DNA of 64,000 bases from Promethearchaeia archaeon (GTDB taxonomy: Archaea; Asgardarchaeota; Lokiarchaeia; Sigyniarchaeales; SOKP01): NCBI GenBank assembly GCA_029856125.1, contig JAHQWJ010000147.1:12509-76508 (forward strand), written 5' to 3'. The notes under the pieces are model-generated. The model saw only the letters and a list, made by a program, of their open reading frames with translations, was not told where the DNA came from and ran no database searches. Both the position numbers and the translations under genes were made by a program. Position 1 is the stretch's first letter. Each line of letters starts with the position of its first letter. Positions 10,069-15,730 of the stretch are shown here, in pieces.

Positions 10069-10434
10069 ATGATGGGAAAAGGAAAGTATGGGAAAGGATA
10101 TGATAAGAAAAATCAAGCTTCAAAAGGCTCTGGTTCTAAAGGTGGAGGCGCACCAATTCGTGGAGGTAAGATCAAAGCCAGTCACATTTTAGTTGATAAA
10201 TTTAGTAAAGCTCAAGAGCTTTCTGAAGACATTCAAGCCGGAGAGAACTTTGAAAATTTAGCGAGGCAATTTTCTACGTGTTCGAGCAAGAAAAAAGGCG
10301 GAAATTTAGGAGAATTTGCCAAAGGGGATATGGTAGCTGAATTTTGGTCCGCTTGTGCAAAATTGAAGATCAACGAAATATCTCAACCCGTTAAATCTAA
10401 ATTTGGATATCATATTATTAAAAGAACGGGGTAA
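10069..10434 (+). CDS. Parvulin-type peptidyl-prolyl cis-trans isomerase
   Basis: ASHILV, FENLARQFS, GGNLG, SQPVKSKFGYHII rotamase motifs; K/G-rich N-terminal extension. Confidence 0.92.
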   Translation: MMGKGKYGKGYDKKNQASKGSGSKGGGAPIRGGKIKASHILVDKFSKAQELSEDIQAGENFENLARQFSTCSSKKKGGNLGEFAKGDMVAEFWSACAKLKINEISQPVKSKFGYHIIKRTG

Positions 10435-10443
10435 AAGATTAAA

Positions 10444-10516
10444 TAGCCCAGCACGGATTCGAACCGTGGTTGCAGGGTTCAGGGCCCCGAGTGCTTGACC
10501 GCTACACCACTGGGCT
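10444..10516 (-). tRNA. tRNA-Gln(CTG)
   Basis: Cloverleaf: AGCCCAG/CTGGGCT acceptor (A1-U72, typical of archaeal Gln), CGGGG-CCCTGAA-CCCTG anticodon arm, CACGG-TTCGAAT-CCGTG T arm. Confidence 0.9.
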
Positions 10517-10657
10517 TTAAAAAGATTATTAATTAATAGAATATAGTTAGTATTATCTAAAAAATCTTTTTCTTTTGAATTAAGGCTAATCCAAAAAGTC
10601 TACTAAAGGTTAATAATCTAATTTGTTAAAAAAAAAATATCTTTGAATTGAGATAGA

Positions 10658-10666
10658 TTTTTATTA
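10658..10666 (+). promoter_or_regulatory. Putative TATA box for the 10689 ncRNA
   Basis: TTTTTATTA lies about 25-30 nt upstream of the first G of the predicted closing stem; weak evidence because the region is AT-rich. Confidence 0.35.
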
Positions 10667-10688: not shown

Positions 10689-10858
10689 GGATTACACTAG
10701 GTTTACAAGGAGGATTTAAAAAAAAAAAACTTGTTTTTTTTTAATGCTCTTATGAGTATTAAAAACCCGTGAAATTACGCGTTTTCTGCGTATTTTGGGA
10801 AACTGAAAAAACAAAACCCCGTAAACTAAAAGTAATTCTTTATCCTCCGGTGTAATCC
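10689..10858 (+). ncRNA. Unassigned structured RNA with closing stem and pseudoknot
   Basis: GGATTACACT/GGTGTAATCC, GGTTTAC/GTAAACT, GGAGGAT/ATCCTCC plus two internal hairpins; several G-U pairs form only on the + strand. Confidence 0.65.
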
Positions 10859-10860
10859 TC

Positions 10861-10868
10861 TTTTTTTT
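10861..10868 (+). terminator. Oligo-T terminator of the putative ncRNA
   Basis: T8 run starting 2 nt after the 3' strand of the closing stem. Confidence 0.5.
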
Positions 10869-10892
10869 AGAAAGATAATTAGAGAGATTTCT

Positions 10893-12101
10893 CTAATCAG
10901 TGTTATAAAGGGAAAAAATCTCTTGAAAATACTTATCCGACATACCCGCGATAAAATCTCGGGCTATTAATTTAAGGTTTCCATTTTGCTTATTTGGTTC
11001 AAAATAAGTAGTATATTTTTCATCATCAATATATTCTATGTGGTCGATAAAAATAGGAGCTTTAAAATTTTCTTCCTCTAAATCTCGGAGAGAATTTTCA
11101 AAAATTAGGTTAAATTTCTTTGTTAGATTTTCCATGTAGGAAATTTTGGAATCATCGGTTTTATGCATATCTCTTCGACTATATATATTATCATAATTAA
11201 ATCTTTTTAATTCTTTAAACGCTTCAAAAATGTCTTCACTATATCCGATAAAATCGTTATGTAAACTTGTGTTCAATAAATCCATGATAAGTGCTTTCAT
11301 GATTTTCCGATTAGTATCGCCAAGTACATTTTTACAACTATTTGGTATATCTGATCTTTTAATTATTTTTAATAGAATTGCGTCTTCAATATCTCGGCCA
11401 ATATAGGCTACAGAATCCGCAAATCTTACTGCGATGCCTTCGAAAGACATAGGTATTCTTTTAATTTGATTAGCGTTGAAACTTTCTTTATATTCTTTAA
11501 AGTGATCTTCCCAACTCTTTCCGTTTATTGTAGCTGGCTTCAACTCTCTCTCGTTAACTTCGCCATCGTGACATAGAACGCCATCTAGCACTTGAAGGGT
11601 CAGATTTAATCCTTTTGCAGGTTTGTCAGGAAATCTTTTTTCAAGAAAAGATAACCACCTTATCCCTTGAGCATTATGATTAAAAACACCCATATGATTT
11701 TTCAAACTTATATCATTTAATATAGCTTCACCTAAGTGCCCAAAAGGAGAATGTCCTACATCATGACTTAAAGCAATCGCTTCTATTAGATCAGTATTAA
11801 ATTTCAAAATTCGTCCTATTTGACGCGCAATTCTGGCTACTAAAATAACATGTAAAGAACGATGAGTAATATTTGCGTTATTAATGCCAAAAAATACTTG
11901 AGTTTTATCTATATAGCGAGCGTAAGCTTTACTGTGAACAATTCGATCAACATCTCGAAAGAAGGCAGGCCTGATATCAATAGCGGATTCTTCATCTTCT
12001 TCGTAATATCTTACTGCTTGTGAATCAGATATAGCTAAACTTCCGATATCTGAATCCCGCCTCATATGGAGAGTATAAATTTTAAGATTTTTAGGATCCA
12101 C
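10893..12101 (-). CDS. dgt: HD-domain dGTP triphosphohydrolase-like protein
   Basis: RDVDRIVHSKAYARYIDKTQVF, HRSLH, HDVGHSPFGHLGE, HNAQG, RDFIAGMSD. Confidence 0.85.
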   Translation of the reverse strand: MDPKNLKIYTLHMRRDSDIGSLAISDSQAVRYYEEDEESAIDIRPAFFRDVDRIVHSKAYARYIDKTQVFFGINNANITHRSLHVILVARIARQIGRILKFNTDLIEAIALSHDVGHSPFGHLGEAILNDISLKNHMGVFNHNAQGIRWLSFLEKRFPDKPAKGLNLTLQVLDGVLCHDGEVNERELKPATINGKSWEDHFKEYKESFNANQIKRIPMSFEGIAVRFADSVAYIGRDIEDAILLKIIKRSDIPNSCKNVLGDTNRKIMKALIMDLLNTSLHNDFIGYSEDIFEAFKELKRFNYDNIYSRRDMHKTDDSKISYMENLTKKFNLIFENSLRDLEEENFKAPIFIDHIEYIDDEKYTTYFEPNKQNGNLKLIARDFIAGMSDKYFQEIFSLYNTD

Positions 12102-13819: not shown

Positions 13820-15730
13820 TTACTTTAGGAGTAAAGTTTCTCTATTCTTAGGGCTTTTAGTTGCTTTCCTTAATTTCTTATGAATCATCGTTGATAAACT
13901 CACGCATTTACTCTCTTCGCCGTGATTTGTTATGATGAGCTTAGGTTTTGGTTGAATTCTGCGTAGAAATTGAGATATTTGGCTGCGCGATGAATGACCG
14001 CTAAATCCTTCTAACGTGAAAACATTCAAATTAAGTCGTACTAGTTGGGTTCTTCCTTTTGCGTTAGAATATTGAATTTCACGAAATCCCCGCTGAATTC
14101 TTGACCCTAAAGTACCATTTACTTGATAAGATACGAAAATAAGAGAATTATTTTTATCTTCTGCGAGTGCTTTCAGATATTGTACTGAAGGACCACCAAT
14201 TAGCATACCACTAGTGGCTAATATTATACAAGGTCCACCCATTATAACATTGTTCCTTTCATCGCGACCTGAGACTGTAGTGAAAAATTCGCTCAAGAAA
14301 GGGTTTTTTCCTTGATGTAAGATTTTCTCTCTTAGGTCTGAACTGAGAAAATCAGGGTTAGCGGTGTGTATCGCTGTTGCTTCGGAGATTAATCCGTCTA
14401 GAAAAATGGGAACTTGATCGATGATGCCCTTCGAAATGAACTCTTCTAACACGATTATAAGTTCTTGCGCTCTTCCTACAGCTAACACAGGAATAAGCAC
14501 CTTACCACCTCGCTTAATTGTTGAAGTTAGAATTTGTCTAAGTTCTCGCTCTGAATCTTGCCTGCTGGGAATTCGATCTTGCGGTCCACCATATGTTGAC
14601 TCTATAAGTAAACTTTCGACGCGAGGGAATTTCACAGCGGCTTGTTCGAGCAACCGAGTCTTCTGATATTTGAAGTCTCCTGTATATACGAAATTATAGC
14701 CTCCTTTTCCAAAATGGAGGTGAACTAGCGATGAACCTAATATGTGTCCGGAATTATGAAGTGTCAATTTTATATCGGGAGCAATATCAGTGACTTTTCC
14801 CCATGAAAGAGGGATAGTATGGAGTACAGCGCTTTTCACATCTCTCTTTGAGTATGGCATTGGAACGCCCTCTTTTTCACAAATCTGGACGAAATCCAAT
14901 TGTAACATAGTTGACAAGTTACGAGTTGGAAGAGTACAATAGACTGGACCGTCGTATCCATACTTAAATAAGTATGGAACCATACCACAGTGATCTAAAT
15001 GAGCATGGGTTACAATGACAGCATCTAAATCTCTTATAGAGAATTCGGGAATGTCAAAATTAGGATATTGATCGTTCTTGTTCCCCACATTCAAACCAAC
15101 ATCTAAAAGAATATTGCTATCCCTCGTTTGCATTAAAATACAAGATCTTCCAACTTCTCTAAATCCCCCTAACGCAGTTAGACGAATATCCAATTCCTTG
15201 AACAGAGTAGGTCTGTGGATTCGTTTTCCAATATTAAGGAGTATATCTTTCTGATTTTGTCTTTCTTTGGTAAGCATTTGCCTAATTAAACTAATAGTTC
15301 TCGAGGCAAGAGGAGGAGTTCGGATGGTTTTCGGTTGCCAGAATGTATTCAATCTAATCTCTTTTAAATTAACACCTTTCTTACCAATAACTAATCCTGG
15401 TTTTCCCGATTCTATAATAACTTCGCCACGTGTGTGATCAAATTCAATGTTAGTAATTTCTGCATCCTCGCTTATTAAATTTCTAATGTAATCCTCAGTT
15501 TCAGAGGGATCTTTGCGATCTTCTACATTCCATCGAAAAACCACTCTCTTTCGCATAGATTTAGCTAAATCCTTCAGTACATCGGAATTTTCCATAGATT
15601 CAAGATTTGTATTCTCTGAGTAAACAGCTATTTCAGGACCCTCAAATTCGATTTTTTTTACGACTATCTCGGGAGGGAGATGTGAAATAATTTGGTCTTT
15701 TATCCTTTGTAGTTCTCCTTCGAAACTCAT
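13820..15730 (-). CDS. fttA: Beta-CASP ribonuclease aCPSF1 (KH domains + MBL), transcription termination factor
   Basis: FEGPEIAVY, KPGLVIGK KH motif, LGGFREVGRS, HAHLDH, ESTYGG, GFSGHS. Confidence 0.95.
   Translation of the reverse strand: MSFEGELQRIKDQIISHLPPEIVVKKIEFEGPEIAVYSENTNLESMENSDVLKDLAKSMRKRVVFRWNVEDRKDPSETEDYIRNLISEDAEITNIEFDHTRGEVIIESGKPGLVIGKKGVNLKEIRLNTFWQPKTIRTPPLASRTISLIRQMLTKERQNQKDILLNIGKRIHRPTLFKELDIRLTALGGFREVGRSCILMQTRDSNILLDVGLNVGNKNDQYPNFDIPEFSIRDLDAVIVTHAHLDHCGMVPYLFKYGYDGPVYCTLPTRNLSTMLQLDFVQICEKEGVPMPYSKRDVKSAVLHTIPLSWGKVTDIAPDIKLTLHNSGHILGSSLVHLHFGKGGYNFVYTGDFKYQKTRLLEQAAVKFPRVESLLIESTYGGPQDRIPSRQDSERELRQILTSTIKRGGKVLIPVLAVGRAQELIIVLEEFISKGIIDQVPIFLDGLISEATAIHTANPDFLSSDLREKILHQGKNPFLSEFFTTVSGRDERNNVIMGGPCIILATSGMLIGGPSVQYLKALAEDKNNSLIFVSYQVNGTLGSRIQRGFREIQYSNAKGRTQLVRLNLNVFTLEGFSGHSSRSQISQFLRRIQPKPKLIITNHGEESKCVSLSTMIHKKLRKATKSPKNRETLLLK

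Follow-up and report, generated by a model that had tools for sequence, protein, structure and literature searches.

A small RNA family of one Lokiarchaeia family with a repeated motif and a putative tRNA-type intron

Introduction

Archaeal box C/D guide sRNAs serve RNA-guided 2'-O-methylation. Y RNAs and stem-bulge RNAs have ends paired in two stems split by a bulge, a pyrimidine-rich interior and a U tail. In the protein-titrating sRNAs CsrB/CsrC and RsmY/RsmZ, GGA motifs are numerous and occupy hairpin loops. Relaxed BHB introns, of the HBh' type, are non-canonical tRNA introns (reviewed in PMC4090602), and BHB introns also occur in rRNA, in the cbf5 mRNA (PMC2738675) and in a 5' UTR (PMC7714728). 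In the papers that we searched, which cover few subscription journals, we found neither a BHB intron in a small RNA of the kind treated here nor a description of this RNA; the papers searched contain no description of Asgard small RNAs beyond the standard classes.

Here we analyze a locus in a 64,000-nucleotide stretch of DNA (the window) from a Lokiarchaeia genome, for which an earlier note, written from the sequence alone, had proposed an RNA gene of about 170 nt. According to the comparison with its homologs, there is little doubt that positions 10689-10858 (+) are a real stand-alone small RNA gene of one Lokiarchaeia family. The coordinates of its features are compiled in Table 1.

Table 1. 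Features of the RNA gene and its neighbours in the window. Slashes mark the proposed splice sites.
Feature	Position	Strand	Basis
Promoter, BRE/TATA-like, GATAGATTTTTAT	10652..10664	+	conserved archaeal block
Precursor RNA, 170 nt	10689..10858	+	sole model match in own genome; single-copy homologs
P1, 5' strand	10689..10698	+	pairs with 10849-10858
P2 (earlier helix B), 5' strand	10709..10715	+	pairs with 10842-10848
A-tract / CUUG / U-tract element	10718..10742	+	pattern in 62/84 homologs; length variable
P4, clade-specific hairpin	10743..10760	+	96% of cells paired within genus
Motif 1, first half, AAACCCGUG	10763..10771	+	ACCC(C)GUG in 83/84 genomes
Putative BHB intron, relaxed type, 30 nt, CCCG UG/A ... 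UGGG AA/A	10772..10801	+	insert comparison
Motif 1, second half, ACUGA	10802..10806	+	CUGA in 84/84 homologs
Motif 2, AAACCCCGU, predicted single-stranded	10814..10822	+	two motif copies in 70/84 genomes
3' strands of P2 and P1	10842..10858	+	sequence, pairing, covariation
T8 run, probable terminator	10861..10868	+	seen in sequence
tRNA-Gln(CUG), divergent neighbour, context	10444..10516	-	synteny kept in most homologs
dgt-like dNTP triphosphohydrolase, convergent neighbour, context	10893..12101	-	ORF; named after the earlier note and the HD-type sequence; synteny

Results

Promoter, orientation and 3' end

Judged by its homologs, the element represents a conserved, promoter-bearing and covarying small RNA family that is absent from Rfam. 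The Rfam search that had been suggested as a check was run over the window and ten intronless homologs; no family matched the element, and the neighbouring tRNA-Gln was the only match. The best Rfam candidates over the element, Ref84 (E 5.6) and 6A RNA (E 0.16, 26 bits vs 41), were both rejected. Likewise, the homologs share no conserved ORF and no spacing between a Shine-Dalgarno sequence and a start, and the small-ORF reading was rejected for want of a conserved ORF.

In 86 upstream regions, each of the columns from -37 to -25 is conserved at 55-99%, and the ATTT box is located at -32 in 62 regions and at -31 in 15. The TATA-like box that had been pointed out earlier is present at 10657-10664 and keeps its distance across the family; this conserved promoter at a fixed position supports the view of a stand-alone gene with its own promoter on the + strand. 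The proposed orientation is further backed by U-G wobbles in P1 and by the geometry of the intron described below. Judged by minimum free energy alone, 68 of 86 sequences would favour the - strand. None of 200 shuffles folds as well as the 170-nt stretch (z -4.79 on the + strand, -3.64 on the - strand), and the A12 run that had been reported is found at 10718-10729. A T8 run was said to follow the RNA directly: the run exists, but it starts two bases past P1, and a run of T4 or longer lies within 14 nt of the 3' end in only 47 of 86 sequences (T3 or longer in 71). Three metatranscriptome-labelled runs left the element uncovered, which is evidence neither way on expression.

Distribution within the family

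BLAST detected 24 homologs within the genus. Of the 135 family genomes, 90 gave exactly one match each with a covariance model; five more, from the genera g19, g69, g71 and g74, came from a second model, and a motif pattern search added two, one of which is known as a pattern match only. Hence about 97 of 135 family genomes, from 10 out of 13 genera, possess a single copy. A homolog with the same gene order is present in the record of Promethearchaeota archaeon CSMAG_2743, and 21 further homologs reside on metagenome contigs. Most copies are situated between tRNA-Gln(CUG) and dgt, a synteny that is lost outside the family. The earlier note had made its proposal depend on relatives with compensatory changes, and such relatives exist, namely single-copy homologs in which P1 and the second stem covary.

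Outside the family, 26 genomes belonging to other families of its class and another 125 from the phylum yielded no homologs; this search employed three models and three patterns, each of which scores only part of the candidates, and its outcome reads as 'not found', not as 'absent'. One further pattern search of genome contigs was too loose and returned mostly chance matches. No viral copy was found. Within the family, no homolog was found in genus g20 (five genomes, one of them 100% complete in 10 contigs), where the RNA is either dispensable or too diverged. Two loci of this genus, L335 and L336, show a changed arrangement of dgt and tRNA-Gln, with the RNA at neither end of dgt.

Two further elements of the neighbourhood were recorded. 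A parvulin with a Gly/Lys-rich N-terminal tail (window 10069-10434, +) is retained beside tRNA-Gln and the RNA by most family members. A perfect 8-bp hairpin (window 10878-10897) overlaps the dgt stop codon and is lost in close relatives.

Terminal stems and variable interior

The alignment establishes that the ends of the predicted RNA close a two-part rod, which consists of P1, a one-sided loop and P2. Both helices had been proposed from the sequence of this copy, and both are present, conserved and covarying. In this copy, P1 comprises nine Watson-Crick pairs and one U-G; its pairs 1-9 each form in 95-100% of 86 sequences, and nine of its ten pairs show two-sided changes. For P2, two-sided changes are seen in 7/7 pairs, and 92.9% of cells are paired across the family. 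Taken together, 16 of 17 pairs carry two-sided changes vs 5.1 in shuffles, none of 500 shuffles being as high; as the structure was used to fit the alignment and the sequences come from relatives, this covariation is somewhat overstated.

Beyond the motifs, the interior is made up of A/U-rich linkers of variable length (total 102-222 nt). The U-tract of the element at 10718-10742 can pair with the A-tract at 10806-10814. Other clades lack the hairpin P4 or have it replaced. ACUGA is paired with a UCAGU further upstream in most of the other genera, and genus g22 has a compensated version of this pairing.

The repeated motif

Comparison of the homologs establishes the conserved core of the predicted RNA as a repeated single-stranded motif, ACCCCGU(G)...ACUG, which is present in two copies, sometimes in one or three. 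The first half of motif 1 has four C in most homologs, and ACUG follows the C-run after 0-20 nt in 82/84. The predicted mean unpaired probability of the C-run is 0.90 vs 0.45 overall. Motif number and spacing are variable (spacer 0-18 nt), and one copy may decay with another intact.

A probable tRNA-type intron

At one site within the motif, 25 of the 84 homologs contain an insert of 29-32 nt. These inserts represent 23 distinct sequences, and all 25 end in NGGGAA. The CCCG of motif 1 forms the 5' strand of a BHB central helix; its partner is CGGG in 14 homologs, UGGG in 7 and AGGG in 4 (three pairs plus G-A), in keeping with a central helix of 4 bp. A 3-nt bulge lies 3' of the central helix on each strand (UG/N and AA/N), and a cut after the second bulge base followed by joining would yield the two commonest intronless junctions. 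The inner intron helix (h') is represented by a hairpin in 25/25 inserts (-1.9 to -10.4 kcal/mol), the pairing near the bulge being short in many. The exon-exon helix (h) of the canonical hBHBh' is not continuous in any of the 25; because it is missing, we place the insert among the relaxed HBh' motifs. The splice geometry works on the + strand only, and the dgt tree of 36 rows implies at least four gains or losses of the intron. These features suggest that, in all likelihood, a 30-nt tRNA-type intron is spliced out in this copy.

The consequences for the RNA would be considerable. The predicted unpaired probability of the CCCG of motif 1 is 0.21 before splicing and 0.86 after it, and the interrupted motif is the sole intact one in 7 intron-bearing genomes. 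Splicing is very probably needed to expose the conserved motif 1 in this copy, as far as folding predictions can tell, and the mature RNA is predicted to measure about 140 nt. The length of about 170 nt given in the earlier note thus holds for the precursor and not for the predicted mature RNA; of the two interior hairpins that it had listed, both are present in the sequence, but the one with CCCG..TGGG corresponds to the putative intron.

No second copy of the intron was found in the genome. In two relatives (L147:1501-1531 and L148:983-1013), tRNA-Gln(UUG) contains a 31-nt intron at a site of this kind (CCCG UG/A, ending in CGGGAA), and the genome under study has many tRNA introns. Several related observations were made along the way. 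The tRNA-Gln(UUG) genes of L147 and L148 also have a second insert, in the D-arm region. ARAGORN missed tRNA-Gln genes with a T-loop intron, i.e. tRNA-Gln(UUG) on contig C11 of G000 and those near the element in L010 and L011. Family members differ in where the neighbouring tRNA-Gln(CUG) carries introns, with several sites in use. In genus g70, two homologs possess longer inserts (L106:107-328, about 55 nt; L141:1403-1604, about 30 nt), and in L106 the insert could represent an intron at the site described above, either longer or nested, whose central helix contains one mismatch.

Search for features of known RNA classes

The homologs were compared with further classes of small RNA. For box H/ACA RNAs, an ACA box 3 nt from the 3' end occurs in 0/84, and both motifs are on one side of the rod. 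The loop C word of 5S rRNA, CGAAC, is present in only 2/84 homologs, and the reading as a missing 5S rRNA was rejected, a permuted 5S being found elsewhere in the family. This 5S gene is circularly permuted (contig C136 of G000, about 15030-15210, - strand, outside the window; also in L358-L366), and because of this permutation it is missed by RF00001. The SRP54-binding helix 8 motif was found in 0/84 homologs; the SRP RNA of the genome is on contig C126, and the reading as part of a split SRP RNA was rejected. In L033:1501-1790 (-), the SRP RNA scores 59.9 bits (cut-off 96.5), with the first 66 model positions, the Alu domain, unmatched. The 16S gene is also elsewhere in the genome.

Y RNA was rejected, as five genomes searched contain no match to TROVE/Ro60 (PF05731) and Rfam gave no match. 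A template for a reverse transcriptase (telomerase-like, DRT or retron) was rejected as well: there is no match to PF00078 in G000, G233 and G216, and no product repeats, i.e. tandem copies of the motif word, were found in the genome. GGA words, which in CsrB/RsmZ occupy hairpin loops, are here in stems, and the repeated motif is C-rich.

Discussion

A possible role in protein display

What is more difficult is to assign a role to a sharply defined motif in an RNA family confined to one archaeal family. In our preferred model, the tRNA-splicing endonuclease and ligase would remove the 30-nt intron in this genome, freeing motif 1 from the central helix and yielding a 140-nt RNA like that of the intronless relatives; both steps are strongly suggested by the insert comparison. 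The RNA might then act as a display scaffold, its repeated motif serving as binding site for a sequence-specific RNA-binding protein, one or two molecules of which would be titrated or organised following the logic of CsrB/RsmZ. These last two steps are the least certain, and we regard such a display mechanism as tentative, with a probability somewhat below one half. It is consistent with a motif that is repeated, unpaired (0.90) and freely spaced (0-18 nt), of which one copy may decay, and which does not respond to changes in the candidate RNA partners. The proposal is derived from the anatomy of the RNA and from the failure of pairing models.

Resemblance to 23S rRNA

An alternative, which we consider unlikely, is that each motif unit is a same-sense mimic of the H74/H75 strand of the peptidyl-transferase region of 23S rRNA, serving as a decoy for a factor, a modifying enzyme or a toxin, or as a placeholder in 50S assembly. 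The matching 23S positions are the equivalents of E. coli 2062-2069 (ACCCCGUG) and 2077-2080 (ACUG). All 27 of the 27 family 23S genes seen contain the exact word, followed by ACUG 7 nt later. By chance, a bipartite match is obtained with 1.8% of third-order Markov surrogates and 1.1% of letter-shuffled motifs (p 0.011-0.018), values that are post hoc and uncorrected, the match being one among several comparisons; besides, an equally good same-sense match of 11 nt exists in tRNA-Gln(UUG). Many homologs add the H75 partner word CAGUU, and C(A/G)GUU is found upstream in 45/84, but the first unit's helix changes sequence in genus g22, and only 3 of 115 units have a spacer of 7 nt. In E. coli, H74 is unwound by a known enzyme (RlmKL, PMC3351187), and the parvulin encoded nearby carries a basic tail. 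Against the mimic, the RNA is missing from lineages whose 23S word is identical, and the search of the sister family detected no covaried version. If it were true, an Asgard RNA would copy the H74/H75 strand twice, with tRNA-type splicing freeing the active motif in roughly one species out of three. The 23S of G007 (L169, around position 1384) contains the motif in the same sense once more, over 10 nt, on a hairpin strand of a variable region.

Possible pairing with 16S rRNA

It is equally improbable that the RNA acts as an antisense chaperone or orphan guide in small-subunit assembly, in which AACCCCGU would pair with ACGGGGUU at the h15/h4 junction of 16S rRNA, with CUGA perhaps as a D box. 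The genome's own 16S does offer a perfect complement of 8 nt, but the chance p is about 0.09, and the complement is shorter than a guide of 10 nt. CUGA occurs in 84/84 homologs; its distance from the C-run is not fixed (spacer 0-18 nt), and the C box RUGAUGA is found in 0/84, four homologs having it with one mismatch in the first 40 nt. The 16S word differs in sister families (AUAAGGUU, ACGUGGUA), a point in favour of the pairing, but the covaried motif predicted for the sister family is rarer than its control. Also in favour, the 16S of G200 has GGGGCC and GGA precedes motif 2; against it, the A before the C-run stays although the 16S of this genome has C opposite. AUGGGG occurs in the 16S of three genomes, and the two with a homolog keep G, a neutral case as wobble is allowed. 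Furthermore, no homolog was found in genus g20, whose 16S word is identical.

Possible mRNA targets or relation to tRNA-Gln

A third unlikely reading makes the RNA a trans-acting mRNA regulator or a decoy related to tRNA-Gln, the motif corresponding in the same sense to positions 37-48 of tRNA-Gln(UUG). Single-stranded C-rich seeds would suit G-rich sites, and the identity with tRNA-Gln(UUG) of this genome extends over 11 nt. However, the 9-nt word occurs 13 times in the genome, at scattered places that apparently lie in coding sequence. The neighbouring tRNA-Gln(CUG) varies at the site and the motif does not; mimicry of tRNA-Gln(CUG) was rejected for this lack of covariation.

Improbable readings: a DNA-level element or a pseudoknotted RNA

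That the locus works as DNA, as an inverted-repeat site or replication origin, is very improbable: it does have a perfect terminal inverted repeat, tandem direct motifs and an AT-rich interior, but each genome carries one copy, the U-G wobbles are on one strand, the promoter is at transcription-start distance, and the splice geometry of the insert is that of RNA, again on one strand only.

Weaker still is the model from which the analysis started, a pseudoknotted RNA of 170 nt with an RNase P/MRP-like core, possibly catalytic, to which we give hardly any credence. The present copy (-7.5 kcal/mol) and its nearest relatives are able to form the crossing helix A; within the genus, 64% of cells are paired, mostly by A-U, and the helix is confined to this copy and a few close relatives. 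In 75 homologs, the cognate duplex averages -1.43 kcal/mol, compared with -1.50 for non-cognate duplexes and -1.60 for shuffles, and only 4% reach a p of 0.05 or less. The pseudoknot is thus at control level and not conserved, and therefore the analogy to RNase P/MRP falls; moreover, the words CR-I and CR-V are found in 1/84 and 0/84 homologs, the interior is mostly variable linkers, and the canonical RNase P RNA of the genome (124.7 bits) lies on contig C137.

Comparison with known systems

With RNase P RNA (RF00373) and RNase MRP RNA, the RNA described here shares a terminal stem P1 followed by a second stem; unlike them, it has neither a conserved pseudoknot nor the CR-I and CR-V words. Like archaeal box C/D guide sRNAs, it has a pair of short words that could act as guides, with CUGA frequently downstream of each, but it possesses no C or C' box, the spacing of CUGA is variable, and the rRNA complement reaches only 8 nt. 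The resemblance to Y RNA concerns a size of about 100-140 nt, ends in two stems split by a bulge, a single-stranded pyrimidine-rich interior and a U tail; the difference is that this small RNA does not contain the Ro60-binding stem sequence. As in CsrB/RsmZ, a short single-stranded motif is repeated on a loose scaffold in variable copy number, but here the motif is ACCCCGU(G)...ACUG, present in only one to three copies, the ends are closed by a conserved stem, and the host is archaeal.

The inserts agree with relaxed HBh' introns in the 4-bp central helix, in the 3-nt bulges 3' of the helix with a predicted cut after the second bulge base, in the inner hairpin, in the length of about 30 nt and in the patchy occurrence among relatives. 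Unlike the BHB introns described in the papers searched, they reside in a small stand-alone RNA and not in a tRNA, rRNA or mRNA. If this RNA is spliced, endonuclease-spliced introns would extend to a host outside these three classes.
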